Shown: positions 1-15,841 of the stretch, in pieces
Layout of the letters: every line of letters begins with the position of its first letter
How positions within the stretch are numbered: the stretch's first letter is position 1
Assembly (NCBI GenBank): GCA_944386365.1
Contig: CALXAT010000004.1
Span: forward strand, 56,715-88,714
Source: an uncultured Clostridia bacterium
GTDB lineage: Bacteria > Bacillota > Clostridia > TANB77 > CAG-508
DNA length: 32,000 bases
Direction of reading: 5' to 3'
Position numbers and translations under genes: made by a program
Notes under the pieces: generated by a model
What the model saw: only the letters and a program-made list of their open reading frames with translations
Told to the model about the DNA's origin: nothing
Database searches by the model: none

Positions 1-743
1 AAAAATTAATAGAAACATATAAAGAAAAAAAGATTAATTTTGATGATAAATCTTTATATAAAAAAGAAAATAAAAAAAATATATTTAAAAATAAAAGAGA
101 TATGCCCATATTAGAGGATTTATATAATATTTTAAAAAAAGATAAAAAAACTGAAAAATTTTCTATAAAATTAATTCCATTTGTCAAAGGTTCAATGAAA
201 TTTTTTAATAATTATACAAATATAGAATTAAAAAATGAATTAATTATTGCAGATATATATGAATTAGGTGAGGAAAATTTAAAATATGGTATGTATTTAT
301 TTACAGATATTTTTTGGGATAAAATTAAAGAAAATAGAAAAGAAAAAAAAGCAATATATTTAGATGAAATTTGGAGGTTAATAGGTGTAACTTCTAATAA
401 AAATGTAGCCAGTTTTATATATAAAATATTTAAGACGATAAGAAAATATGGAGGAAGTAGTGTTGCTATAACGCAAGATATTTCTGATTTATTTAGTTTA
501 GAAAATGGAATTTATGGAAAAAGTATTTTAAACAATTCTAGTATAAAAACATTTTTTGCATTAGAAGAAGAAAATATAAAAGTATTATCAGAATATGCAA
601 ATTTGTCAGAAAAAGAAAAAATAGAAATTAAATCACTAAAAAGAGGAGAGTGTTTAATGTTTGTAGGAGAAGATCATATATTAACAAAAATTGAATGCTC
701 AGATGATGAATATGAAATTATAAAAGGAGAAAAAAATGACTAA
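1..743 (+). CDS. VirB4/TcpF-like conjugative type IV secretion ATPase, C-terminal part (5' end lies left of the window)
   Basis: The frame of ORF 102..743 stays open back to nt 3, so the gene is cut by the window edge. The translation has a VirB4/TrsE-type Walker B block (AIYLDEIWRLIG) and a downstream RKYGGSSVAITQDISD block. Stop TAA is at 741-743. Confidence 0.75.
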   Translation, partial: KLIETYKEKKINFDDKSLYKKENKKNIFKNKRDMPILEDLYNILKKDKKTEKFSIKLIPFVKGSMKFFNNYTNIELKNELIIADIYELGEENLKYGMYLFTDIFWDKIKENRKEKKAIYLDEIWRLIGVTSNKNVASFIYKIFKTIRKYGGSSVAITQDISDLFSLENGIYGKSILNNSSIKTFFALEEENIKVLSEYANLSEKEKIEIKSLKRGECLMFVGEDHILTKIECSDDEYEIIKGEKND

Positions 744-1773
744 AATATTAACAGCCATAAATGACCAAAAAATACTAAAAAAAATAATAAAAAATAAAAT
801 AACAGAAAATAAAAATATTTTATATAAAGAAGCAATTATTGATATATTAAAAAAAAATAAAAATATAGATTTAATAATTATTAGTGAAAAAATTCCTGGA
901 GATATAAATTTAATAAAATTAATAAAAAAAATAAAACAAATTAATAAAAAAATAAAAATAATTATAATTTTAGAAAATAAAAAAATGAAAAAAGAATTAA
1001 TAAAAATAAATATAAAAAATATTTATTATAATAATATTTTTAGCGTTTATAAACTAATAAAAAAATTAAAAGTAAGAAAAGGTTATCATATTACTGAAAA
1101 TTTATTTATTAATCACAATATAAATAAATTAAAAAATATATTTAATTATCAAAATAAAAAAACAGAAAAGAATGAAAACAACATAATATGTATATTTGGA
1201 GAAAATAAAATAGATAAAAAGATAATAGAATTAATTATAATAAAAAAATTATTAATAAAAAATAAAAATATAATAATTATGAATTTTAAATTAAATAATA
1301 AAAGAGAAAAAAATAGGAAAATAATTAAAATAAAAAAAATAAAGAATAAATATAATTTAAAGTTAAAAATAAAAAATATTAATGAAATAAAAATAAAAGA
1401 AAAAGTGATAAATAATAAAATAAAAAAAATAATAAATATTAATAATATATTAAAAAATAAAAATAAAATGATTAAAATAAAAATATTAAAAAATATAATA
1501 AAAAAATATAGTAAAAATAAATATTATATAGTAATTAATATACAATTTTCGTATAAAAATATAAATAAAATACCTTTGCAAAGCAAATATATAAATATAA
1601 TAAATTTAGAAAATAATAAAAAAAATTTATTAAAATTAAATAAATATAAAAAAGAAAATAAAAATGCATATTTAATATTAAATAATTATATTAAAAATAA
1701 TTTATCAAGATATTTTTATAAAATATTATTAAAAAATAAATTTAAAAAAATAAAAATTATTAATTTAATTTAA
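736..1773 (+). CDS. Ultra-low-complexity K/I/N-rich protein (345 aa); possibly a pseudo-receiver plus degenerate ParA/MinD-like fold (CpaE/TadZ-like)
   Basis: AAGGAG lies 6 nt upstream of the ATG. There is an 8-nt ATGACTAA overlap with the upstream ATPase gene. The frame is open for 345 codons in ~10% GC DNA, where TAA should occur about every ten codons. The N-terminus (KILTAIND...IDLIIISEKIPGDINLIKLIKKIK...IKIIIIL) resembles a receiver lacking the acceptor Asp. IICIFGENKIDKK sits where a deviant Walker A would be. The fold assignment is weak. Confidence 0.5.
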   Translation: MTKILTAINDQKILKKIIKNKITENKNILYKEAIIDILKKNKNIDLIIISEKIPGDINLIKLIKKIKQINKKIKIIIILENKKMKKELIKINIKNIYYNNIFSVYKLIKKLKVRKGYHITENLFINHNINKLKNIFNYQNKKTEKNENNIICIFGENKIDKKIIELIIIKKLLIKNKNIIIMNFKLNNKREKNRKIIKIKKIKNKYNLKLKIKNINEIKIKEKVINNKIKKIININNILKNKNKMIKIKILKNIIKKYSKNKYYIVINIQFSYKNINKIPLQSKYINIINLENNKKNLLKLNKYKKENKNAYLILNNYIKNNLSRYFYKILLKNKFKKIKIINLI

Positions 1774-1798
1774 CAAATAAAATAATTATTAATAAAAA

Positions 1799-2637
1799 AA
1801 ATAAAAATAAAAAAATAATAATAAAATAATAATAAAATAATAATAAATATATAAAATGTAAAAAACTATAAAAATATTTTTATAAATATAAGACATAAAA
1901 AATATTAATAAAAAAAGAATATAATGAACGAAAAAGTATTATTGTAAAATATCATTTATACAAATGGTAAAAAATGTAAAATAGAAAAAGAAAAAGTTCA
2001 TTTAAAAAAAATGGAAAATATAAAGGTAAACATAAATAAAAAAGATATAATTCAAAAAAATTATATAAATTTATAAAATTAAAACTAATAGAAATTTAAA
2101 AATGTAAGTTTACAAATATAAGAAGATTAATTAAAAACAAAAGAGATAAATAAAAATATAAAAAATGAAAATACTCCAAAAAAGAAAAGAAAATGCTACG
2201 CAAATAAAGAAAAAGTAAAAATGAAAGAATAAAGTATATTGAAAAAGCCAATAAATACAAAGTAAACATAAAATTGAAATAAAATTAAAGAAAAATAAAT
2301 GAAAAGAAAAGAATTTTGAAAAAAGGCTGAATAGTGAATTTTATATGTTAGAATATAAGAAATAAAAAAATTATTGAAACATATAAAGAAAAAATAAAAA
2401 TTGTAAAAATTAAAATGATTAATAAATAATTTAAAAATAAAATATTAATAATTAATTTTATAAACAATAAAGATAAATAAAAAATTAAATAATACTATTA
2501 ATATAAAAAATAAATATAATTAATAAATATTATTTAAAATATTTATTAAATAAAAAAAATAAAATAATTAAAAAAATAAATATAAAATATAATATAAAAA
2601 ATAATATAAAAATTAAAAAGTAAATTTAATAAATAAA
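1799..2637. repeat. Repeat unit 1 (full length, ~839 nt)
   Basis: Boundaries are approximate and set relative to the anchor at 1964. Block 2026-2152 is almost identical to 4275-4400 in unit 4 (2 substitutions plus a 1-nt indel by hand alignment). Confidence 0.6.
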
Positions 2638-3172
2638 AAAATAATAATAATAAATAATAATGCTAAAAAATATAATAATAAAATAATAATAAAAATATAT
2701 AATGTAAAAAATTTATTAAAGTATTTTATAAAAAATAAAAAATATTAATAAAAAAATATATAATGAACGAAAAAGTATTATATAAAATACTATTTATATA
2801 AAATGGTAAAAAAAAAATTTAAAATTATATAAATTTAAAGAAAGAATCTTAATAAGAATAACAGAAAGAAGGTTTATAGTTATGATAACATTAATAAAAA
2901 AGAAAAGAAATAAATAAAAATAAACCCAAAGATGAAGGGAAAAGAAATTTGAAAGAAGGTGAATAAAAAAATTTATATGTAAGAATATAAGAAATAAAAA
3001 ATTACCTAAGATATAAAACTTGGAGAAATCTTATGAAGATTAAAATGAGAAATAAATTATTTATAAAGTATTTTTATAAGTAATAAAAGACAAATAAAAA
3101 AAATGAAAATAAATATTAATAAAAAAAATTCTAATTAATAATAAATAAATTATAAAAAAATAATATATAAAT
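2638..3172. repeat. Repeat unit 2 (short, ~535 nt; lacks the middle block with gctacgcaa)
   Basis: The anchor at 2803 to tatatgt at 2974 spans 171 nt, versus 375-378 nt in units 1 and 3. Block 2974-3059 matches 3713-3798 at 79 of 86 positions. Confidence 0.6.
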
Positions 3173-4047
3173 ATTATAAATAAAAAAGCAATAATAAATA
3201 ATTATAAAAATAAAATAATAATAAATATATAAAATGTAAAAAATCTATTAAAATATTTTTATAAAATATAAGAGATAAAAAATATTAACAAAAAAATAAT
3301 GAATAAAAAAGTATTAATATAAATGCTATTTATACAAATGGTAAAAAGTGTAAAAGAAAAAAATAAAAAAATTTAAAAAAATAAATCAAAGAAACAAAAG
3401 TTAACATAAATAAAGAAGAAAAAATTTTAAAAAAAGTATTTAAATTTAAAAGGAGAATTTTTATAAAAATTGCAAAAGGAAAGTTTACCGTTACAATAAA
3501 ATTAATAAAAAAGAAAAGAGATAAATAAAAAGATGAAAGATAAAAATAGAAAAAAAGAGAAAAGGAAAAGCTACGCAATTAAAGAAGAATTAAAAGTAAA
3601 AGAATAAAGTATAAGGAAAATTAAACAAACATAAAGTAAACATAAGACAAAAATAAAATTGAACTCCAAAATGCAGGTAAAGAAATTTTGAAAGAAGGTT
3701 GATTGAAAATTTTATATGTAAAAATATAAGAAATAAAAAATTACCTAAGATACAAAATCTAGATAAATCTTATGAAGATTAAAATAAGAAATAAATTAAT
3801 TACAAATGAATACTAATAATTAATTTTATAAATAATAAAATGAATAAAATAATGCAATATTAATAATATAAAAAATAAATCACGAAAAAATGTATATAAA
3901 AAAATATTAATTAAATGAAATTAATTATAAAAAAAAGAAATAATTTAAATTTAAAAATAAATATAATATAAAATATAAAAATTAAAAAATAAAATAATAA
4001 AAAAACTGTTTAAAATAAAAATATATTATAAATTTATAAAAAAATAA
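3173..4047. repeat. Repeat unit 3 (full length, ~875 nt)
   Basis: Anchors are at 3338, 3570 and 3713. It shares the 3' block with unit 2 and the middle block (aagtttac..ataaaattaataaaaaagaaaagagataaataaaaa) with units 2 and 5. Confidence 0.6.
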
Positions 4048-4921
4048 AAGAAATAATAAAGATAATAAAATATAATATTAAAATAATGATAAATATAAAA
4101 AATGAAAAAAGCTATAAAAATATTTTTATAAAATATAAGAGAGAAAAATATTAACAAAAAATAAAAAATATAATGAACAAAAAAATATTATTATAAAATA
4201 GTTTTCATATAAATGGTAAAAAGTATAAAGTAGAAAAAGAAAAAATTCATTAAAAAAAAATTGAAAATATAAAGGTAAACATAAATAAAAAAGATATAAT
4301 TCAAAAAAATTATATAAATTTATAAAATTAAAACTAATAAAAATTTAAAAATATAAGTTTACAAATATAAGAAGATTAATTAAAACAAAAGAGATAAATA
4401 GAAAAATAAATGATGAAAATACTAAAAAAAAGGAAAAGGAAATGCTACGCAATAAAAGGAAAAGTAAAAACGAAAGAATAAAGTAGAAGAAAAAAATAAA
4501 TAAGTACTAAGTAAACATAAGACAAAAATAATATTAAAATTAAATAAATGAAAAGATTAAATGAAAAAGTTGAAATGAAAAAATACAAAATCAATAATGT
4601 GACTATTAGAAAGTAATCATATAAAAAATTTTTAGAGAAAGTTAAAAAGGAAAATGAAAATTTAAATATATAAATAAACAAATTGAACGTAATAATAATA
4701 GTAATAAAAAATAAATTAAACAGATAATAAATATAATAAAAATAATCAAAAAATAAATAATATAATAATGATTAATTTAATCAAATAAAAAAAGAAAAAT
4801 AAAAATATATTTAAAATGCAAAATTTATAGTATAAAAAATATTTACTCAAATATAAGTATAAGATAAAAGATTTTATTAAATAAAAAATATATAAATAAA
4901 AATTATATTTTTTTAAATATA
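4048..4921. repeat. Repeat unit 4 (~874 nt; 5' two-thirds like unit 1, different 3' block)
   Basis: Anchors are at 4213 and 4444. Block 4275-4400 is near-identical to unit 1. The tatatgt..ttacctaagata block is replaced by unrelated sequence (4540-4690). Confidence 0.6.
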
Positions 4922-5560
4922 TAATTAATTATATAAAAAATGATAAAAATAAAAAAATATAAATAAATATTATAAAAAATAATAAAAGTAATTTAAAATA
5001 AAAAACAATAAATATCGATAAGAAATATATATAAAATAAAAAATACATAATAAGCAAATATTAAGATAATTTTCAACAAACATAAAATGGTAAAAAATGT
5101 AATATTATAAAAAGAAAAATGTTATAAAAAAATAAAAGTAGACATAAATCGAAAAGAAGAATTTTCAGAATAATTGTTTATTTTTGGAAAGCAAGAATTA
5201 ATAAATATCAAAAAGCGGAAGTTTACGTTTATAATAAAATTGATGAAAAATAAGAGAGAAAATAAAAGATTTAAATATAAAAATGAGATAAAAATAAAGA
5301 AGAAAAAACTACGTAAATAAGGAAAAAATAAAAATAAGATTATTATATAAAAATAAAAAGAGCATATAAAAGTAGTGTACATAAAATAGAAATAAAATTT
5401 TTAAAAGTAAAGTATAAACGAGGATACAATTATTTATGAATAAAAGTAAAACATATAAATATGTGAAAGAAACAAAATTTATCTAAAGAAAAAATGCGGA
5501 TAATATATAAGTGAAAATAAATAATTATATAAAGAATCTGATAAAATGATTTTATTGATA
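4922..5560. repeat. Repeat unit 5 (most diverged, terminal copy)
   Basis: The anchor at 5087 and actacgtaa at 5308 keep the same spacing as other units (222 vs 231-232 nt). The segment cggaagtttacgtttataataaaattgatgaaaaataagagagaaaataaaag parallels unit 3. Similarity fades after ~5550. Confidence 0.45.
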
Positions 5561-5736
5561 TAAAAAAATGTAATCAAAAAAAGTCAGAATAATTAGATAT
5601 AAAAATTAAAATTAAAAATGAAAATAAATAAAATATTGAATAAAAAAATAATTAAATTAGAAGTAATTATTAAAAAAATTAAATTTAATAAAGAAAGGAG
5701 AGTATAATATAAAAATTATATTATACAATAAATTAT

Positions 5737-6456
5737 ATGGAAATAAATAAAATAGAAAATGAAGTAAATTTAAATAATGAAATAAATAGAAGTAATGAAC
5801 AAAAAAGTTTTTTAGAAACTACTCTAGGAAAAACAATAAATACAGCAATAGATATAGGAATACGAGCCTTATTACCAGATTTTGTAGATGAACAGATTAT
5901 TAATATAAAAGATAATTTATTAAACTATGGTTTAAAAGAGGGTATAGCAAAAACAATTAATGATGCTATAGATACAGGGAAGAGTGCAATAGGAATATTT
6001 ACAGGAAATTTCGAAAATGTTTCACAAATGCAAACTGCAGTTAAATCAGGAGGATTAATTGATGGAATTTCTTCTTTATTAGATACAGTTGTTGATAAAG
6101 TGAATCAAAAAGGATTGATCAATTATAATATTGCAAGTACGATTAAACAAGGTAAGGATGTTATATTAAATAGTATAGAAAGTAATATCGAAGATAAATT
6201 TAAAGAACAAAATATAGAAGTAGAAAATATAGAAAAATATATAAATAAATGGAAAGAAAACTTTAATAATAAGAATTTTAAAGGTATGGAACAGCAATAT
6301 AATAAAATAGAAAAAATATTAAATAATTTGGTACCTTTAGAAAAGATAATAAATCAAGCAAGAACAATTGAAAATCTACATAATTTAATAAAAAATAATG
6401 GGCAAGATTTTAATTTAAACCAAGAACAATTAGCATTAGCTGAAAAATTAATTTAA
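5737..6456 (+). CDS. Hypothetical protein, predicted all-helical, no signal peptide or TM segment (239 aa)
   Basis: A clean ORF with normal amino-acid complexity, in contrast to the flanking tract. It is followed by a weak hairpin (gggaa-ataaa-ttccc, ~6519-6536). I recognise no family motif. Confidence 0.6.
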   Translation: MEINKIENEVNLNNEINRSNEQKSFLETTLGKTINTAIDIGIRALLPDFVDEQIINIKDNLLNYGLKEGIAKTINDAIDTGKSAIGIFTGNFENVSQMQTAVKSGGLIDGISSLLDTVVDKVNQKGLINYNIASTIKQGKDVILNSIESNIEDKFKEQNIEVENIEKYINKWKENFNNKNFKGMEQQYNKIEKILNNLVPLEKIINQARTIENLHNLIKNNGQDFNLNQEQLALAEKLI

Positions 6457-6881: not shown

Positions 6882-7448
6882 AATGTCACCTCAATAAAAA
6901 TATTATTTACATTATATTACAAAAAAGTTCGAAAACCGACTGACCGAAAGCATATGAAGAAAGTATGCAAAAAGCAATTGTTAACAAAAACAACATTAGA
7001 TATTATTATACAATATTTTATAAATAATAAGTAAATTATAGAAAATAAATCTATAAATTATGGCCAAGGGTGGTGGAAAAAGGAATTAAAATTTAGTAAA
7101 ATAAAATTATTAAAAAATGAATAGAAGAAAAGACGTCAAAGGAAGAAATAACAGGTTTAGAAAAAGAATAAATTAAAGATTTAAAGATATAAGATAAAAA
7201 TAAATCCATTAAAAAAGAATTTCAAAATGGGTTTATTTTATGTTTTTAAAGTAAAAAAAAATAGCATAAAAGATAATAGAAAGTAGTGATAAAATAGAAT
7301 TTGGTTAAAAGATGGAATTATTACAAAAGAAAAAAATACAGAAAAGTTATTTTAAAAGATATAATAAATAAAAAAATATAAAAAAGTATAAAAAAAAATT
7401 TACAATCAATAATAAATAATAAAATAGGATAATTAGGAGATGAATGTA

Positions 7449-7739
7449 ATGAATTTAAAAAATTCTAGAAAAAAAGATATGATAAATATGGTATATCAAG
7501 CACAAACAGAGAAAATTGATGAAATACTAAAGAAAACAGATAAAAAAGTAGAAGATGAATTAGAAAAAATAGAAATTGAAAGAATCATTGAAGATTCCAA
7601 TTGTAAAAAAGAGCTAAGAGATATGTTACGAAAAATAGAAGATAATTACAATATGAAGGTGACAGAATATAATAAGGAGATGTATAAACAGGGATTTATT
7701 GATGGAGTCAATTTAATATTAAATTGTTTAAAAGAATAG
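7449..7739 (+). CDS. Small hypothetical protein (96-99 aa), charged and helical
   Basis: The ORF in the track starts at 7440, but AGGAG abuts that ATG. The in-frame ATG at 7449 has 9-nt spacing. It lies on the opposite strand to the XRE gene, about 560 nt away. Confidence 0.55.
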   Translation: MNLKNSRKKDMINMVYQAQTEKIDEILKKTDKKVEDELEKIEIERIIEDSNCKKELRDMLRKIEDNYNMKVTEYNKEMYKQGFIDGVNLILNCLKE

Positions 7740-7784
7740 AAAGATGAAAATATTTATTTCCCTAGGTTTTTTTAAGGATTTTAC

Positions 7785-7813
7785 TTGCAAAATAAGGTTT
7801 GTTTTAGTATAAT
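7785..7813 (+). promoter_or_regulatory. Sigma-A type promoter candidate for gyrA
   Basis: TTGCAA (7785-7790), a 17-nt spacer, then TATAAT (7808-7813), ~37 nt upstream of the gyrA ATG. Confidence 0.45.
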
Positions 7814-7849
7814 ACAAAGGTAGAAATATAAAGGAAGAGAGGGAAAACA

Positions 7850-10306
7850 ATGGAAGAAAGACAAGAAAGAAGAGACGGAAAAATAATTGAAAAAGACATC
7901 GAAAAAGAGATGAGAGAAGCTTATATAGACTATGCCATGAGTGTTATTGTTTCTCGTGCACTTCCAGATGTAAGAGATGGTTTAAAACCAGTACATAGAA
8001 GAATTTTATATGCTATGCATGAAGATGGTATTACATCAGATAAACCATATAGGAAGTGTGCTAATACAGTAGGTTCTGTTTTAGGTAGATATCATCCACA
8101 TGGAGACAGTTCTGTATATGATGCGATGGTTAGATTAGCACAAGATTTCTCAATGAGATATCCACTAATTGATGGACATGGTAACTTCGGTTCTGTAGAT
8201 GGTGACGGTGCAGCAGCTATGAGGTATACAGAAGCAAGAATGTCTAAAATTGCAGAATATATGCTAACAGATATTGAGAAAAATACGGTTGATTTTATGC
8301 CTAACTATGATGATAGATTACAAGAACCAACTGTTTTGCCAGCAAGGATACCAGCATTACTTGCAAATGGGTCTTCAGGTATTGCCGTAGGTATGGCAAC
8401 CAATATACCACCACATAATTTAACAGAATTAATTGATGGAATTATTAAAATTATAGATGAGGATGAAGTAACAGATGAAGATCTAATGACAGTAATAAAA
8501 GGACCAGATTTTCCAACAGAAGGAATTATTTTAGGATTAGAGGGAATTAAAAAAGCATATACAACAGGTAGAGGAAAGATTACTTTAAGAGCGGAAACAG
8601 AAATAGAAGAAATGAGCGGTAATAGACAAAGAATTATTGTTTCTTCATTACCATATCAAGTAAATAAAGCAAACTTAATAAAAACAATATCAGACTTATC
8701 AAAAGAGAAAAAAATAGAAGGAATTTCAGAATGTAGAGATGAGTCAGATAGAATTGATAAAGTAAGAGTGGTTATTGAATTAAAAAGAGATGCAAATCCA
8801 CAAGTTGTATTAAATCAATTATTTAAACATACACAAATGCAAACAACATTTGGTATTATCATGCTAGCATTAGTAAATGGAGTACCAAAGATTTTAACAT
8901 TAAGACAATGTTTAGATTGCTATATTGATCATAGAAAAGATGTTATCTTAAGGAGAACGCAATTTGATTTAGATAAAGCTTTAGCTAGAGCACATATTTT
9001 AGAGGGATTAAAAATTGCGTTAGATAATATTGATGAAGTTATCGAAATTATTAGAAATTCTTATGATGATGCAAAAGAAAGATTAATGCAAAGATTTGGT
9101 TTATCAGATATTCAAGCACAAGCAATTTTGGATATGAGATTAAAAACATTATCAGGGTTGCAAAGAGAAAAAATTGAAGAAGAATATAATCAATTAATGG
9201 AATTAATTGCACACTTAAGAGATATTTTAAATAGTGAAAGATTAGTTTTTGACATTATCAAAGAAGAGTTACTAGAAATTAAAGATAAATTTGGTGATGA
9301 AAGAAAAACGAAAATTGTGGCAGCAGAAGGCGAAATTGATGTAGAAGATTTAATTAAAGAAGAACAAACAGTTGTAGCCCTAACATATTTTGGATATATA
9401 AAAAGAATGCCAATTAATACATATAAGAGCCAAAAACGTGGAGGAAAGGGAATAACAGGTATTGCGACAAGAGAAGAAGATTTTGTAAAACAAATCTTTA
9501 CAGCTTCAACACATGATATGATTCTTTTCTTTACCAATAAAGGCAAATTATATCATTTAAGGGGATATGAAATACCAGAAGCAGGAAGAACTGCAAAAGG
9601 TACAGCAATTGTAAATTTATTAAGTTTAGATCCAGGAGAAAAAGTTTCAGCGGTTATACCAATTCAAAATTTTGCAGAAGGAAAATATTTATTAATGGCT
9701 ACAAAGAAAGGATTAATAAAGAAAACAGCATTGAAAGAATATGATTCTACTAGAAAAACAGGATTACAAGGTATTGCTTTAAAAGAGGATGATGAATTAA
9801 TTGGTGTAAGGTTGACAGATGGACAAGATAATGTTGTTTTAGTTACTAGAAACGGTTTATGTATTACATTTGATGAAAAAGATGTAAGACCAATGGGTAG
9901 AGTTTCTCAAGGCGTTATTGGAATTAGGCTTGATGAAGATGATGAAGTCATAGGAATGGAATCTGTTATTACTGGAGGAAAAGCAACACTACTTGCAATT
10001 ACGGAAAATGGTTTTGGAAAAAGAACGGAATTAGATGAATATAGAGTACAAAAAAGAGGAGGAAGAGGTGTAATTACTTATAAAATTACACCTAAAACAG
10101 GAAAACTAGTTGGTGTTAGAATTGCAGCAGAAGAAGATGATGTAATGTTAATTACAGATACTGGAACCATCATTAGAATTAATGTAAAAGATATTAGTAT
10201 TTTGGGAAGATCAACACAAGGTGTTACATTAATGAGAACAAGCGATGGTGGAAAAGTGGTTAGTATGGAGATTTTAACGCCTGAGCTTAATGAAGTAGAA
10301 GGATAA
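7850..10306 (+). CDS. gyrA: DNA gyrase subunit A
   Basis: 818 aa. The N-terminus has AYIDYAMSVIVSRALPDVRDGLKPVHRRILYAM, a QRDR-like GRYHPHGDSSVYDAMVRLAQ and the catalytic-Tyr region AAMRYTEARM. The GyrA-box QKRGGKGITG marks it as GyrA rather than ParC. Confidence 0.97.
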   Translation: MEERQERRDGKIIEKDIEKEMREAYIDYAMSVIVSRALPDVRDGLKPVHRRILYAMHEDGITSDKPYRKCANTVGSVLGRYHPHGDSSVYDAMVRLAQDFSMRYPLIDGHGNFGSVDGDGAAAMRYTEARMSKIAEYMLTDIEKNTVDFMPNYDDRLQEPTVLPARIPALLANGSSGIAVGMATNIPPHNLTELIDGIIKIIDEDEVTDEDLMTVIKGPDFPTEGIILGLEGIKKAYTTGRGKITLRAETEIEEMSGNRQRIIVSSLPYQVNKANLIKTISDLSKEKKIEGISECRDESDRIDKVRVVIELKRDANPQVVLNQLFKHTQMQTTFGIIMLALVNGVPKILTLRQCLDCYIDHRKDVILRRTQFDLDKALARAHILEGLKIALDNIDEVIEIIRNSYDDAKERLMQRFGLSDIQAQAILDMRLKTLSGLQREKIEEEYNQLMELIAHLRDILNSERLVFDIIKEELLEIKDKFGDERKTKIVAAEGEIDVEDLIKEEQTVVALTYFGYIKRMPINTYKSQKRGGKGITGIATREEDFVKQIFTASTHDMILFFTNKGKLYHLRGYEIPEAGRTAKGTAIVNLLSLDPGEKVSAVIPIQNFAEGKYLLMATKKGLIKKTALKEYDSTRKTGLQGIALKEDDELIGVRLTDGQDNVVLVTRNGLCITFDEKDVRPMGRVSQGVIGIRLDEDDEVIGMESVITGGKATLLAITENGFGKRTELDEYRVQKRGGRGVITYKITPKTGKLVGVRIAAEEDDVMLITDTGTIIRINVKDISILGRSTQGVTLMRTSDGGKVVSMEILTPELNEVEG

Positions 10307-10393: not shown

Positions 10394-11398
10394 TTATCTT
10401 GTCTTGAAACGTATATCATCTCCAAAGAAGCAATAAATATCATAATATCCAGCAATTCTAGAACCAATTCTTTCTTCATATTTATTAAAAATCTCATTAA
10501 TATTTAAATTTGTAGAAATAATGGTTTTTGTAATTTTATGATTCAAATTTAAAATTCTGGTATTAATAATAGTAAACAATTCACTTAATTTCATACTATT
10601 TAATGTTTCAGTTCCTAAATCATCAATAATTAGCAAATCGGTTTCTAAGACAGATTTATTAATATCTTCTAAATTAGATTTTTGTTTATTTAATTTATAG
10701 TCTATTATATTTTCAAGTAAAACAGGAGCTGTTTGATAAAGCACCGTTTTTCCCGATTTTAGTATTTCATTTGCAATACAATTAGAAAGAAATGTTTTTC
10801 CAAGACCTGTATTTCCTGTAAATAATAAATTCTTATAATTAGGGTTATCAAAATTTTGAACAAATTCTAAACATTTATCTTTTATTTTCCTAATATTTTC
10901 TCTAGGCGAAATAGGAAACTTATATTTATTAGGATTTACTTCATCAGAAAAAAGCAATTCATTAAAAGTAGAAAAGTTTTCCTTGTCCAAATTAGACATA
11001 TTGGATTTATTAAAAGAAATATCTAGAAGCCTTTGCTTTAAACAGCTACACATTTCTGTTTTGTAATTATCTTTTTGAATATATCCCGTATCTTTACATA
11101 AAGAACATTCATAATGTGGCATTAAATATTCAGAAGATATTTTATTTTTTTTCAAAATTTCTTGTTTTTCTTTTTTTAAAGAATTAATTTTATCAGTGAG
11201 TAATGATAAGGATTCATATTTTTTATTTAAAATATCTCTTGTAGTAGAAATAGCACAAGTGTTAATTTCATTTTCGATATTTCGTAATCTTGGAATTTTA
11301 TCATATAAAGATTCTTTTCTTTCTTCAGCAGCAATTTCTTCTCTTACTTTTTTTTGCTCATATTCTTTTAATAAAGAATTCAATATTTCATTAGCCAA
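10394..11398 (-). CDS. dnaI: DnaI/DnaC-like replicative helicase loader (AAA+ ATPase with N-terminal zinc-binding motif)
   Basis: Walker A is GNTGLGKTFL and Walker B is LLIIDDLG. The Cys cluster is ECSLCKDTGY...MCSC. The likely start is TTG at 11398, with AAGGAGG 6 nt upstream; the track's ATG at 11428 has no RBS. It overlaps the stop of the upstream DnaD-domain gene by 8 nt. Confidence 0.8.
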   Translation of the reverse strand: MANEILNSLLKEYEQKKVREEIAAEERKESLYDKIPRLRNIENEINTCAISTTRDILNKKYESLSLLTDKINSLKKEKQEILKKNKISSEYLMPHYECSLCKDTGYIQKDNYKTEMCSCLKQRLLDISFNKSNMSNLDKENFSTFNELLFSDEVNPNKYKFPISPRENIRKIKDKCLEFVQNFDNPNYKNLLFTGNTGLGKTFLSNCIANEILKSGKTVLYQTAPVLLENIIDYKLNKQKSNLEDINKSVLETDLLIIDDLGTETLNSMKLSELFTIINTRILNLNHKITKTIISTNLNINEIFNKYEERIGSRIAGYYDIYCFFGDDIRFKTR

Positions 11399-12377
11399 TT
11401 TTATCCTCCTTGTTTGATTGATTTGCATATAAAAAGTCTAAATTTTCATATTTCCTTTGTTCATAATTTACTTTTTCTACTTGCTGTTTTAGATTTTTTG
11501 TATCTTTATTTAATTTTTTCCTTTGCTCAATAAAAGCATTGACTTCAGAAGGTGTTTTTAGGTTTCTGTCATGCCAATCTGTAATAATGGTATTAATATA
11601 TTCAAAAGTAGGAGATTGTTTTAAAGTTGTACGTTTTAAAGCAATTTCAATAATATCCATATCATAGCCAAAATTTAAAACCCAGTTTTCAATATAGGCT
11701 TCTTCATATTGCGTTAAATTGCCATGTTTACCTAATTTTTTAGAAATAGATTTTTTTAAAGAATTTAATTTTTCTTGTTTTTCATAATATTTATCTAAAT
11801 CATTCCAAGTTTTAATTTTATTAGAAGCCCAAGCTTCCGCAACAGTTTGAACATAATTTCTATGCATAGCACTTCTATTATAGCAATAATCAAAAAGAGC
11901 AATCATAACTTGTTCATCAAAATTATATTTTCTAAACCAAATGTCAATGTCATTATACCAAGAAGGACTCATAATACCTTGGAAATACATATTGTTGATA
12001 TGTTCAATTGCTTTGGCTCTAGATTGATTTTTAGCAGTTTGAGCAACTTTTTCTTTAGAAACTGTTAGATTAGGTGTATATAATTCATGAAGTGTTGCTT
12101 CTTGTAAGTCTACAATAACATATCCTGTAGATTTTTTTGTAATTAATTTATTTTCTTCTAGAAATTTAAGACCTTCACTAATGGATTTTAAAGGTATATT
12201 TAACTTCTTTGATAGATCATTTAATTTTATATCTTTATTATATTTTGAAAGAAATAAGATATATAAATAAATTTTCAAATAATCTCCAGGAATTTGAGAT
12301 AAATAATCTGAAAAAAATATATCTGGTATTGATGTTTCGGAAAATAAAAGTGTTTTATCGTTTTGTTCTAATTTCAT
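11391..12377 (-). CDS. DnaD-domain replication initiation / primosome protein (B. subtilis DnaB/DnaD-like)
   Basis: It has an N-terminal winged-helix-like region and a C-terminal DnaD-type block (IMSPSWYNDIDIWFRKYNFDEQVMIALFDYC). It is translationally coupled to the DnaI-like gene, as in Firmicute dnaB-dnaI operons. The ATG at 12377 has a better RBS (AAAGGACGG) than the track's 12422. Confidence 0.7.
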   Translation of the reverse strand: MKLEQNDKTLLFSETSIPDIFFSDYLSQIPGDYLKIYLYILFLSKYNKDIKLNDLSKKLNIPLKSISEGLKFLEENKLITKKSTGYVIVDLQEATLHELYTPNLTVSKEKVAQTAKNQSRAKAIEHINNMYFQGIMSPSWYNDIDIWFRKYNFDEQVMIALFDYCYNRSAMHRNYVQTVAEAWASNKIKTWNDLDKYYEKQEKLNSLKKSISKKLGKHGNLTQYEEAYIENWVLNFGYDMDIIEIALKRTTLKQSPTFEYINTIITDWHDRNLKTPSEVNAFIEQRKKLNKDTKNLKQQVEKVNYEQRKYENLDFLYANQSNKEDKIG

Positions 12378-12472
12378 TTTTTTATCCGTCCTTTCTAAGC
12401 TCAAACTAAGAAATTGTTTCATTACAAAAGCCCTATATCTTTTTATATAAATTTCGTTATTTGGTAATACAA

Positions 12473-12501
12473 ATTATATCTTTTTTAGACAAAAAATTCA
12501 A
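12473..12501 (-). promoter_or_regulatory. Sigma-A promoter candidate for the DnaD-domain/dnaI operon
   Basis: On the minus strand: TTGAAT (12501-12496), a 17-nt spacer, then TATAAT (12478-12473). Confidence 0.4.
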
Positions 12502-12538
12502 GGTGAATTTTTTAAAATTAAAAGGAATTGTTTTAAAA

Positions 12539-12835
12539 CTACCTGTATGTATTTGTTTTAGTATAAAAAAATATTTTTTGTTTGAAAATAAATTTAAGCA
12601 TATAGGTAAAAATATAAATAATATTTTCTCCATGAATACCAGAAATACTAAGCAAGAAAATAGGAAAACAGAAAAGAATAAATATAACGACTTTTATATT
12701 GATATCCTGAATTAAAAGATGTAATAGTAAAAAAACAAATAATGCCCAAAGAATATTAATAATTGCTACAGAATAATCAATAACACCCAATATTTTATTT
12801 TTAAATGTATAATTTTGTGGAAAAATAAATTTCAA
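12539..12835 (-). CDS. TcpE/PrgI/VirB3-like small conjugal-transfer membrane protein
   Basis: 98 aa with two TM helices after an N-terminal YTFKNKILG motif. The TTG start has AAGGAG 8 nt upstream. It sits directly downstream of the VirB6-like gene. Confidence 0.5.
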   Translation of the reverse strand: MKFIFPQNYTFKNKILGVIDYSVAIINILWALFVFLLLHLLIQDINIKVVIFILFCFPIFLLSISGIHGENIIYIFTYMLKFIFKQKIFFYTKTNTYR

Positions 12836-12877
12836 AAAATCATCTCCTTAAATTCGTATAATAAAAAAATTATAATT

Positions 12878-13753
12878 TTATTTAAAATTTGTAAAACTTT
12901 TCACAGATTGTGTAATGGTTGTGGAAACACCACCAATAAAATCACGTACTAAAGAATTTGCTTTAATCAAACCATACATACCACCTACATAAATAAATTT
13001 ATTGAATAAATCAGTACTCGAAAAATCTACAGAAAACATTAAAAGTAAAATAATAGATACAATAATTTGAATAAAAAGAAGGGAAAATAAATTTTTAATC
13101 CAAGCTTTAAAGAACCAACTAGTATTAGAAAGAGTTAAAGATAAAAACGCAAAAGGTGTAATTAGTACAAAAACTTTTACTAAAACATATCTTAGGGAAT
13201 AGGTAAAAACCAAGTTTAATAAAGAAATGGATAAAGTACCTTTAATTAATCCATCAATTGAAAAAATGTTCAAAGAAGAAGTATTAACAGAAATAGTTGT
13301 ATTTATATTTGTAATTAAAGAAGAAAAGCAAATACTTTTATGAAATAAATCTTCTCCAATGCTACGAATGAATAATGAAATATTAGATATTAAATCGATA
13401 AATAGTTGAATAATAAAAAATGAGGCATTCATACAAATGGCATAAAGCATCATCTTGATGAAAAAACTAGAAGGTTTATCAATTTTATCATAAGTTAAGT
13501 GTGATAATAAATATTTAATACTGTAATATAATATAAACGCAAATAAAAGTGTATTGGCAATTAATAAAATACCACTAGAAGTGGAAGTTCCTAAAATATC
13601 CTGAAAATATTTATCGTTTAAAATATCAGAATTAATAAATGTAAGTTCATCTAATAAAGCGTATAAATTATTATCTATAGAACTAAAAATATTTTCAAAG
13701 ATTGTATTAATTGTATCAATAATTACTTGAGTAATATTTTGGGATTGTTCCAT
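12878..13753 (-). CDS. Polytopic membrane protein, VirB6/TrbL/TcpH-like T4SS channel component
   Basis: 291 aa with about 6 hydrophobic helices. AGGAGG lies upstream of the ATG. The call rests on synteny between the pilin-like and VirB3-like genes; no diagnostic motif was seen. Confidence 0.5.
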   Translation of the reverse strand: MEQSQNITQVIIDTINTIFENIFSSIDNNLYALLDELTFINSDILNDKYFQDILGTSTSSGILLIANTLLFAFILYYSIKYLLSHLTYDKIDKPSSFFIKMMLYAICMNASFFIIQLFIDLISNISLFIRSIGEDLFHKSICFSSLITNINTTISVNTSSLNIFSIDGLIKGTLSISLLNLVFTYSLRYVLVKVFVLITPFAFLSLTLSNTSWFFKAWIKNLFSLLFIQIIVSIILLLMFSVDFSSTDLFNKFIYVGGMYGLIKANSLVRDFIGGVSTTITQSVKSFTNFK

Positions 13754-13761
13754 AAAACCTC

Positions 13762-14133
13762 CTATCCAACTAAAGATTTTATTGCAGATAAAATTAAATC
13801 AATTGCTAATATGAAGGCATATGAAAAAAGAGAACCTTTTATTAGTTTTTTACCTGTTCGTATTTTTTCTTCATCACCAAAACTAAATTTTTTCATAAAT
13901 ACACCAGTACCAACAGCGACTGCAGCAGCCGGTGTAGAAATTTTTAATATCCAACCTTCAATATCTTCAAAAGCAGAATTAATGGTGGTAATTAACTTAG
14001 GATCGCCTAAAGCAAGAGAATAAGAAGAGCTAAAGAATATAAGTAAAATAAATAAAGTAAAAGTAAAGGATAAGTAGAAGAATATATATTTAGGTGTTAA
14101 ATAATTTTTTGTGTTTATTTTTTTTATTTTCAT
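13762..14133 (-). CDS. Small secreted/membrane protein, VirB2/TrbC pilin-like
   Basis: 123 aa with an N-terminal signal/TM segment ending SYSLALG, then two further hydrophobic helices (STPAAAVAVGTGVF, SLFSYAFILAIDLILSAI). AAAGGAG lies 7 nt upstream of the ATG. The start overlaps the coupling-protein 3' end by 44 nt. Confidence 0.4.
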   Translation of the reverse strand: MKIKKINTKNYLTPKYIFFYLSFTFTLFILLIFFSSSYSLALGDPKLITTINSAFEDIEGWILKISTPAAAVAVGTGVFMKKFSFGDEEKIRTGKKLIKGSLFSYAFILAIDLILSAIKSLVG

Positions 14134-15841
14134 AAATAAACTCCTTTCTATTTTTAAAATATGGAATCATTTGCAGTTTGCAAGGGGGATAAATTTTATT
14201 ACCATCTGATAAAAAACATAATGCTGAAAAAGTTTCCAGTTGTTGTGTAAAATAGTTTGATTCATAAATGTAATCGTTTTGAATATAGGTACTAATAGAT
14301 TCTGAAATATTAGAGTTTTCAGAATTTAAAGTGTTTGTAATATAACTGTACTTTGTTTCTTTTGCATTTTCTGAAAAACTTTGTGAAGTTCTTTTCTTTT
14401 CCTCTTTCCCTAATTGTTTTTGTGCTTCTTCAATAGTAAAAATATCATCTGTTCGAAACCAAATTTTATTAATCAAATTTTGTACAATAACCTTTACGAA
14501 AGAATCATCTTTTAAAGTATTTTTTAAAGAAGAATAACTTTGCGTACTAATAATATTGATACATTTGGCTTCTCTACTTAAAGAAAAAAATTCTGCATCT
14601 GTTTTACTGGCATATTTATCATATTCATCACAAATAAAAGCAGTAGGAATCACTGTTTTATTAGATAGATTAGACAATATTTCAGATTGAAAATCTAGTT
14701 TTAAATATGTGGCAATCATTTTAGAAAGAATACTATATTCAGAAATATTCATATTTAAAACAACAATTTTTCCTTTTTGGATAACTTCTTCAAATCCTGT
14801 AAAAGTGAGTTTTTCTTTGGAAGAACAGAAACAGGACATAACATCATAATCAGAAACAAAGGTATTGGTTATTCTTGTTATTTCAGAAATTAAAATGGCT
14901 TTTGTTCTTTGATCTAAAGTTTCAAATTCTTTTTGAAAAAAATCTAAACAAGAATTTAGTTCATAAATTTCACGAGAATTTAATTTTGAAGATATAAATA
15001 AATTTTTCAAGATTGGAATTTTTTCTTTGTAATATTGAGGAATGGTTATTATTTTATGCAATTCTAAAAAAGTTACATATCCATTGTTATAAAATCGACA
15101 AAGTTTAATACATTCTGTTAACACCTGTTCAGCTTTATCTAACCAATAAGATTCAGAATTATTTTCAGAAAATAATAGAAGTATTGTTTTTAAGCGATTA
15201 GCCAATACTTGAGGTTTCAAATGAGGTTTGTGTAAAGGATTGTAATGAATATTAGAGTGCAATTCAATAACAACTAAATCGGAAGATAAACCATATTTTT
15301 CACAAAATTTTCTAACTTGTGCATAATAATTTCCTTTTACATCTAAAATGAGCATAGCAATTTTTTTATTTTTATGTGTAGAATTGAATTGAAGAAGCTG
15401 TTCTGTAAAAGGATACATAGCGGAAGAAGTTTTTCCAGAACCAATTGTACCCGTAATTAAAAAATTTTGATAAAGTCCACTTTCAGGAATATATAGATTT
15501 GTTTTTGAAATTTTATCAAAACCAATACACATTTTTAATGAATTAGAAATAGATGATGTATGAGGATTCTCATTAGTTTGTATTAATTCTGTCTGAATTT
15601 TTTTTGACTTAAAAAATTTTTCTAAAATCTTAGAAATGAAGAAATTTAGTAAAACAATGTTGGAAAAAGTATAACATAATACATGTGTAATTTTTAAATA
15701 TTTCCATAAAATTGGATTTTTAGAACAAATATCAAATGGTTTAAGTCCATATGGAATAATTAATTCTTCAGCAGTATATATAGAATAAAAAAACTTCAAG
15801 TGAAGAAAAATAAATATTGTTGTTAAAGCGATTGTTAGCAA
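14090..15841 (-). CDS. Type IV coupling protein (VirD4/TraG/TcpA family)
   Basis: Two N-terminal TM helices. Walker A is GTIGSGKTSS, with LILDVKGN and Walker B FICDEYDKY, then a IISTQSYSSL block. The track start is TTG at 15841. An in-frame ATT at 15853 lies 10 nt after AGGAGG and would give MKRFLLTI... Confidence 0.8.
   Translation of the reverse strand: MLTIALTTIFIFLHLKFFYSIYTAEELIIPYGLKPFDICSKNPILWKYLKITHVLCYTFSNIVLLNFFISKILEKFFKSKKIQTELIQTNENPHTSSISNSLKMCIGFDKISKTNLYIPESGLYQNFLITGTIGSGKTSSAMYPFTEQLLQFNSTHKNKKIAMLILDVKGNYYAQVRKFCEKYGLSSDLVVIELHSNIHYNPLHKPHLKPQVLANRLKTILLLFSENNSESYWLDKAEQVLTECIKLCRFYNNGYVTFLELHKIITIPQYYKEKIPILKNLFISSKLNSREIYELNSCLDFFQKEFETLDQRTKAILISEITRITNTFVSDYDVMSCFCSSKEKLTFTGFEEVIQKGKIVVLNMNISEYSILSKMIATYLKLDFQSEILSNLSNKTVIPTAFICDEYDKYASKTDAEFFSLSREAKCINIISTQSYSSLKNTLKDDSFVKVIVQNLINKIWFRTDDIFTIEEAQKQLGKEEKKRTSQSFSENAKETKYSYITNTLNSENSNISESISTYIQNDYIYESNYFTQQLETFSALCFLSDGNKIYPPCKLQMIPYFKNRKEFIYENKKNKHKKLFNT

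Follow-up and report, generated by a model that had tools for sequence, protein, structure and literature searches.

The window analysed here is a stretch of 32 000 nt from an uncultured bacterium of the Clostridia (GTDB order TANB77; contig CALXAT010000004.1, positions 56 715–88 714, in our numbering G000:C4:56715-88714), whose genome assembly comprises 1.78 Mb in 29 contigs at 28 % GC and is rated 100 % complete. Near the beginning of the window, a gene for a protein designated P0001 starts within the end of a gene for a VirB4-like ATPase and stays open through extremely AT-rich DNA. The P0001 gene is real and is under relaxed purifying selection. According to structural models and family profiles, its product is of the two-domain TadZ/CpaE architecture, with the catalytic motifs lost. 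With moderate confidence, we propose that P0001 acts as a non-catalytic docking or positioning subunit for the VirB4-like motor of a chromosomal module resembling a type IV secretion system (T4SS). The gene, its start signals and the predicted parts of its product are located as follows.

724–729, + strand: Shine–Dalgarno sequence AAGGAG, 6 nt upstream of the ATG at 736, read from the sequence
736–743, + strand: 8 nt overlap ATGACTAA between the P0001 start and the VirB4-like stop (TAA 741–743), an arrangement typical of translational coupling
736–1773, + strand: P0001 gene including the stop codon, 345 aa, ATG start, putative TadZ/CpaE-like pseudo-ATPase
736–1080, + strand: predicted pseudo-receiver (atypical receiver) domain, residues 1–115, with Ser50 (nt 883–885) at the phospho-acceptor position
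1081–1170, + strand: low-confidence linker, residues 116–145, of variable length and with alignment gaps
1171–1770, + strand: predicted MinD/ParA-type (SIMIBI-class) domain without nucleotide-binding motifs, residues 146–345, from the fold model and family profile
1198–1224, + strand: Walker A remnant G155-E-N-K-I-D-K-K-I163, aligning column for column to GxxxxGK[ST]
1282–1290, + strand: switch-I-like remnant N183-F-K185, D-x-D in intact relatives
1525–1539, + strand: Walker B remnant Y-I-V-I-N268, hhhhD in intact relatives

Reading frame and base composition

An initial annotation, made from the letters of the window alone, had singled out a 345-codon frame held open in very AT-rich DNA. This description holds: the frame at 736–1773 has a GC content of 8.1 % (A 62 %, T 30 %, G 5.2 %, C 2.9 %) and no internal stops, with 78 and 59 stops in the other + strand frames and 32, 12 and 23 in the − strand frames. 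From base composition, stops are predicted at 0.134 per codon, approximately 1 in 7.5; the earlier estimate was roughly one in ten. The probability that 345 codons stay open is ~2.5e-22. In first- and second-order Markov simulations of 5 kb the longest open run averaged 48–52 codons and reached a maximum of 97. The DNA that follows (1774–5736) is as first described, with no + strand open reading frame (ORF) of 60 aa or more and a longest + strand stop-free run of 48 codons.

Lys (87 residues), Ile (82) and Asn (60) together make up 66 % of P0001, and K, I, N, L, Y and F, the six that can be encoded by A and T alone, account for 83 %; the net charge calculated from the residue counts is approximately +71, making the protein strongly basic. 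Genome-wide, this is the lowest-GC ORF of at least 200 codons (8.1 %, with 18.6 % in the next lowest and 28.3 % as the median), and 1 kb windows below 13 % GC are confined to the P0001 locus. In every lineage the GC content of P0001 orthologues is low, 7–17 % vs 21–26 % for the VirB4-like gene. The dnaN–recF and gyrB–VirB4 spacers (L003:3154-3931 and 6965-8743) are likewise of 10–13 % GC. Non-coding DNA of this genome seems to lie near 10 % GC, which may be a mutational equilibrium toward which the P0001 gene has drifted.

Both the properly spaced AAGGAG and the overlap with the VirB4-like gene, reported initially, can be read in the sequence. The overlap is also 8 nt in one related locus (L006) and 26 nt in two others (L005 and L008). 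The P0001 gene is very probably translated, by coupling to the upstream VirB4-like gene. A promoter and terminator scan of 600–2600 gave 25 promoter-like sites vs 27.6 in shuffled sequences and no terminators, base composition making such a scan uninformative here.

Conservation and selection

A search of 5.8 billion proteins returned more than 100 relatives of P0001 at 50–73 % identity over the full length, of 283–385 aa and none carrying a name; an exhaustive HMMER search returned 286 representatives at E ≤ 0.001. In all eight orthologous loci of the subclade that were read through, frames of 337–385 codons are kept with the same start and end, and the N-terminus M-x-K/N-I-I/L-T-A-I and the C-terminal end …KIKIIN are common to them. 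The frame had been judged from the start to be under selection, and orthologue comparison bears this out. The ratio of non-synonymous to synonymous substitution (dN/dS, or omega), calculated by NG86 for each gene against the window's copy, is 0.44–0.63 for the P0001 gene, with bootstrap upper limits of 0.62–0.87, all below 1. Among the neighbours it is 0.05–0.09 for the VirB4-like gene, 0.03–0.04 for gyrB and 0.11–0.13 for the downstream gene p239.

Synonymous divergence (dS) is 0.31–0.47 for the P0001 gene vs 0.5–0.77 for the VirB4-like gene. NG86 tends to underestimate dS in DNA of such biased composition, so that omega should be overestimated and the result is conservative; given that composition limits synonymous change in the P0001 gene, the true omega is probably nearer 0.3. 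Of the two domains the N-terminal is the most constrained, with an omega of 0.28–0.47 vs 0.34–0.61 for the C-terminal.

Two-domain architecture

The AlphaFold2 (AF2) model of P0001, built with the family alignment, has a mean predicted local confidence (pLDDT) of 82.4 and yields a receiver and a MinD/ParA-type fold. With the whole model as query, the top Foldseek match is 3fkq, a two-domain TadZ from Eubacterium rectale (4.2e-5), followed by receiver domains. The CpaE/TadZ architecture suggested by the initial annotation is thus recovered by modelling, 3fkq being also the best match of the C-domain.

In the N-domain, ten-residue blocks have pLDDT values of 83–97 over residues 1–110. Residues 1–115 superpose on CheY (VIA Z 13.0, root mean square deviation 2.2 Å over 113 residues), and the Foldseek match of the P0001 model to Spo0F has a TM score of 0.72–0.78. 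The family profile aligns DxxxxS-EKIPG with DLVLLD54-MKIPG of Spo0F, placing Ser at the acceptor position as had been proposed; across 81 family members this column holds S in 59, N in 18 and D in 1. The receiver catalytic positions of P0001 are S50, N9/D10, L79/E80 and Y98/N99, and column comparison finds neither the acidic pair after beta1 nor the Lys after beta5 in this domain. The match to Pfam Response_reg (PF00072) reaches 20.9 bits, under the 30.2 cutoff. In the linker, pLDDT falls below 50 at residues 118–131 and 136–145.

The C-domain folded alone has a pLDDT of 82.8 and a predicted TM score (pTM) of 0.79. Its best VIA match is 3fkq_A (Z 11.0, 3.9 Å over 177 residues), followed by MinD 4v02 (Z 10.4) and then Get3, BcsQ, MipZ and ParA at Z 9–10.4, all within approximately one Z unit; TadZ, MinD, BcsQ, MipZ, ParA, FleN and McdA span Z 9.2–11.0 over 160–177 residues. 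Searched against the PDB, the profile of 81 family members matches the Borrelia ParA-type protein PF-32 (3k9g, 1.9e-14), MinD (5e-12) and also Soj.

Curated TadZ/CpaE models in Pfam and NCBIfam have no match in P0001, and its relatives have only a sub-threshold match to CpaE_hom_Actino (22.5 bits vs 154). Of the 44 Pfam families matched by the N-domains, the 25 matched most often include no TadZ model. Likewise, a scan of P0001 against PHROGs found no match, and identification came through relatives. Longer family members of 360–525 aa share the first ~110 residues with P0001 and have an intact GxxxxGK[ST]; three of these P-loop-intact proteins (P0104, P0105 and P0119) pass the thresholds of Pfam CbiA PF01656 (34.9–38.1 bits vs 25.4) and AAA_31 PF13614 (~35 vs 27). 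P0001 itself has no match in CbiA or AAA_31, and it has neither the deviant Walker A (xKGGxxGK[ST]) nor the Walker B Asp. As P0001 is unmatched in Pfam but its P-loop-intact relatives pass, its ParA/MinD homology is transitive.

Conserved loss of the nucleotide-binding motifs

The family alignment (A2) comprises 36 P-loop-less rows (P0001 and 35 others) and 45 intact rows. The Walker A motif, with G, K and S/T each present in 45/45 intact rows, reads G-E/K-N/D-K-I-D/N-K-K-I in the P-loop-less rows, the motif Gly having become D/N and the Ser/Thr K; the degenerate P-loop GENKIDKK pointed out at first inspection is the P0001 version of this sequence. At the two switch I positions, P-loop-less rows have N (33/36) and K (29/36), and intact rows D (34/45) and D (23/45). 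At the Walker B position, N (32/36) stands in place of D (34/45) or E (8/45). Conservation within the P-loop-less rows extends to I159 (33/36) and K162 (30/36), as well as to N183 (33/36) and N268 (32/36).

On the evidence of this alignment, the degenerate motifs are conserved rather than random. The replacements are, by the same reading, mostly of the G-to-A type (Asp to Asn, Gly to Asp/Asn, Ser/Thr to Lys), the direction of local A/T mutation pressure. With Walker A, switch I and Walker B all replaced, P0001 would be unable to work as an ATP switch.

Genomic context and distribution

The neighbouring features of the window that bear on P0001 are as follows.

3–743, + strand: 3′ part of the VirB4-like ATPase gene (full gene G000:C4:55742-57457, 571 aa)
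1774–5736: AT-rich tandem array, ~4 kb, ~11 % GC (11.6 %), five units
5737–6456: p239, an all-helical 239-aa protein without family match
10394–11428, − strand: DnaI/IstB-type gene, beyond gyrA
11391–12422, − strand: DnaD/DnaB_2-type gene, beyond gyrA
within 10394–15841, − strand: 291-aa gene between the pilin-like and DnaD/DnaB_2-type genes, placed by gene order
13762–14133, − strand: pilin-like gene, beyond gyrA
14090–15841, − strand: T4SS coupling protein (T4CP) gene, beyond gyrA

GC skew turns at dnaA, and the P0001 gene lies ~10 kb from it. The gene order is dnaA–dnaN–recF–gyrB, an AT-rich spacer with a TrsD/TraC-like gene, VirB4-like, P0001, the 4-kb array, p239, an Xre regulator (− strand), a 99-aa gene and gyrA. 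The same order, including the adjacency of the VirB4-like and P0001 genes, was found in 47/47 species-level loci from genome collections, which come from chicken, rabbit, mouse and human gut Clostridia and include Clostridium sp. CAG:343. The family profile matches 198/201 genomes sampled from the order, in 32/32 genera. In a class-wide sample, the N-domain profile matches 9/10 other sampled genomes of the order vs 1/289 scored outside it.

The VirB4-like protein has as its best NCBIfam match NF045971 (CD1110 family VirB4-like conjugal transfer ATPases; 6.3e-84, 282.6 bits, under the cutoff of 325) and matches P-loop_TraG, AAA_10 and DUF87 in Pfam. It is 72–95 % identical across 33 species, with an intact Walker A, FGTSGAGKS. 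A structure prediction of the complex of the VirB4-like protein with P0001 scored 0.20 vs a mark of 0.32; obtained without controls, this value weighs neither for nor against binding.

Upstream of the window, the TrsD/TraC-like gene (L003:8051-8647 = G000:C4:55050-55646) is intact and corresponds to the N-terminal portion of a VirB4 in split form; its identity to L008:7608-8204 is 55 %, and no stop interrupts it. Its head lacks ATG, GTG and TTG, which is why an ORF listing shows just an 87-aa piece, and it probably uses another start codon.

Beyond gyrA, the five − strand genes at 10394–15841 are of mixed type, such that T4SS-type and replication genes are interleaved, and their order is repeated in two other loci (L004 and L005). 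The p239 gene is found in nearly all loci, always after a P0001-type gene and at 49–84 % identity, and its product is a candidate further partner of P0001. No Tad locus was found in the genome; its T2SSE-family genes are a single pair on contig C3 whose lengths, 553 and 378 aa, fit PilB and PilT. A canonical Soj is encoded on the contig of P0001, upstream of dnaA, and MinD on contig C12. At gathering thresholds, Rfam found four tRNAs elsewhere in the window and nothing more.

Proposed role and alternative explanations

The proposed docking or positioning role is drawn from three observations: coupled translation, order-wide adjacency to the VirB4-like gene, and a receiver-like domain under tighter constraint. 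In the proposed mechanism, the receiver-like domain could not be phosphorylated, and in the window's subclade the P0001-type protein would have become ATP-independent. On the analogy of TadZ, which marks the assembly site of the Tad secretion ATPase, P0001 would then be a nucleotide-independent scaffold, its conserved receiver-like domain and MinD-like body docking or positioning the VirB4-like motor. That motor would belong to a chromosomal T4SS-like gene set that lies around gyrA and is inherited vertically. We infer that P0001 may bind the VirB4-like ATPase or other T4SS parts and thereby have a positioning role.

Several observations weigh against this proposal. Selection is relaxed, the dN of the P0001 gene being 4–6 times that of VirB4 (omega 0.05–0.09). 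The family matches of three genomes (G167, G163 and G073) contain many internal stops, the frame in locus L033 is 79 aa, and the short frames of L033 and L037 span 79–213 aa. Some lineages may be losing the P0001-type gene; the stop-ridden or short copies may also represent independent pseudogenisations or assembly errors. Foldseek matches for the C-domain alone are weak (top E 0.03, range 0.03–0.1), although to the same families. The C-terminal tail of the longer relatives is absent from P0001, and the protein is unrecognised by Pfam and NCBIfam.

Some of these observations would also fit a gene in late decay, left with no function of its own after loss of the ATPase motifs and open only through recent loss or a need for operon read-through. 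An omega of 0.44–0.63 against 0.03–0.13 in neighbouring genes, the disappearance of all catalytic residues, the truncated or stop-ridden copies in some genomes and a GC content down to the level of the adjacent non-coding DNA (8.1 and 11.6 %, respectively) are all consistent with decay. However, at the predicted stop frequency a neutral frame would close almost immediately, yet orthologues at 60–73 % identity all keep 337–385 codons with conserved ends. The replaced motifs are themselves conserved, the bootstrap excludes an omega of 1 or above and AF2 folds the protein with confidence, so that decay appears unlikely.

It is quite unlikely, too, that P0001 is a nucleotide- or ligand-regulated switch that acts through a non-canonical site and regulates the activity of the VirB4-like protein rather than its position. 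The fold is retained, the gene is tightly coupled to VirB4, and K161, the equivalent of the GK[ST] lysine, persists (25/36 rows have K here and 5/36 R). The P-loop Gly, the Mg-binding Ser/Thr, the two Asp residues of switch I and that of Walker B have nonetheless all been replaced, and no SIMIBI NTPase is known to bind nucleotide without those residues.

The repeat array

The initial annotation had linked the position of a catalytically dead ParA-like protein beside a large repeat array to a partition- or docking-type function. Units of the array hold AAGTTTAC (at 2106, 3481, 4355 and 5219), followed by AACATAA ~170 nt on. In three other species (L011, L013 and L024) the array also has five copies of each island, with a period of 600–700 bp. 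Among species, the distance from the P0001 gene to p239 varies between −32 and 4839 bp. Gaps or arrays of at least 3.5 kb are found solely behind P-loop-less versions, once in the window's subclade and once, separately, in L046, whose array has its own units with a ~650 bp period. L044, closely related and with the same dead protein, has no array and a gap of just 373 bp, the gaps of seven other P-loop-less lineages are at most 107 bp, and P-loop-intact lineages have AT-rich spacers of 0–2.6 kb after the gene. L044 and these seven lineages, which have a dead protein but no array, led us to reject the array as an obligate partner of the dead protein.

When 20 array units (~200-nt core, five species) were folded with RNAalifold, no consensus pairs were found. 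A tblastn comparison of p239, P0001, VirB4 and other neighbours with the array gave no match; the array is thus not made of decayed copies of adjacent genes. When AT-rich spacers were compared across species by blastn, identity was ~65 % over kilobases, as expected from composition alone, and the comparison was not used.

Whereas docking remains plausible, the partition half of the initial suggestion is unsupported, and it is very unlikely that P0001 is a partition-type or DNA-anchoring protein with the array as a centromere-like site near oriC. The ParA-type domain, the very basic character of the protein (~ +71), the ~10 kb distance from dnaA, the confinement of long gaps to P-loop-less versions in two lineages and the islands common across species would fit such a function, but ParA-type partition needs ATP-dependent dimerization and DNA binding, and the ATP site of P0001 is gone. 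The 373-bp gap of L044, in the same subclade and with the dead protein, the short gaps of the seven other P-loop-less lineages, the AT-rich gaps of up to 2.6 kb in P-loop-intact lineages, and the canonical Soj on the same contig and MinD on C12 also argue against it.

The occurrence of arrays of at least 3.5 kb only behind dead versions, in two lineages, together with the conservation of islands between species, allows one further suggestion, which we regard as a long shot: P0001 and the array might form a DNA-anchored docking platform near oriC, with the basic MinD-like body on the repeat units and the receiver-like domain holding the VirB4-like motor. If true, the platform would fasten the domesticated T4SS-like machine to the origin of replication.

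Significance and comparison with known systems

P0001 is a natural reduced-alphabet protein (83 % K/I/N/L/Y/F, from an 8 % GC gene in a 28 % GC genome) that seems to maintain two classical folds while under purifying selection. As such it offers a natural test of the minimal sequence information for receiver and P-loop NTPase folds, and would illustrate mutation bias eroding catalytic residues once catalysis is dispensable. The T4SS-like gene set is a core feature of an order of gut Clostridia that are uncultured and have small genomes, and the binding partners of P0001, once known, would hint at the job of the domesticated machine.

The MinD, ParA and Soj proteins (e.g. Aquifex MinD 4v02/4v03 and Borrelia PF-32 3k9g) resemble P0001 in C-domain fold and profile homology. 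Unlike them, P0001 has an extra receiver-like domain and no Walker A, switch I or Walker B, and its neighbourhood shows no evident ParB or MinE-type partner. VirC1 of Agrobacterium is a ParA-like ATPase that brings the transfer intermediate to the polar T4SS, and is a ParA-family protein serving as a spatial or recruitment factor for a T4SS. However, VirC1 is active as an ATPase, has no receiver domain and is part of a conjugative system that depends on a relaxase.

TadZ/CpaE of Tad (type IVc) pili shares with P0001 an atypical receiver without the acceptor Asp, followed by a MinD/ParA-type domain, as well as an adjacent secretion ATPase gene. The 3fkq structure is that of Xu et al. (2012), as cited in PMC4234268 and PMC11217815. 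TadZ has been described as essential for the Tad machinery and as implicated in the polar localization of that machinery (PMC11217815), and its polar localization domain has been mapped (PMC4234268). In contrast, the partner gene of P0001 is VirB4-like (T4SS) and not TadA/CpaF, there is no Tad locus, and P0001 is encoded by an 8 % GC gene; TadZ binds ATP by a deviant Walker A, whereas the P0001 subclade is without any nucleotide-binding motif.

A TadZ-like atypical receiver in a non-Tad secretion locus has a precedent in TsfV of the T7SSf of Gram-positive bacteria, where it is joined to an ATPase-type domain (PMC11217815). That domain is AAA+ and not MinD/ParA-type, and the secretion system is a different one. 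The closest described context for the P0001 cluster, but in a different phylum, is the chromosomal, mostly relaxase-less MPF-FATA-type T4SS of Patescibacteria, which is centred on virB4, lies near dnaA in some lineages, is inherited within classes and has been proposed to be co-opted for non-conjugative roles (PMC12102498). TadZ, CpaE and MinD never occur in the text of that paper, which thus describes no such partner. Full-text literature searches that combined TadZ with VirB4 or with the atypical receiver domain, and TANB77 with conjugation, turned up no paper on a TadZ-type/VirB4 pairing.

The architecture of P0001 is therefore itself known. What is new by comparison is the VirB4-type instead of Tad-type partner ATPase, the fixed chromosomal site beside oriC, the loss, itself conserved, of all nucleotide-binding motifs and the extreme composition. 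Seen against the Tad system, P0001 would represent a TadZ-type positioning module recruited to a VirB4-centred, chromosomally fixed T4SS-like gene set.

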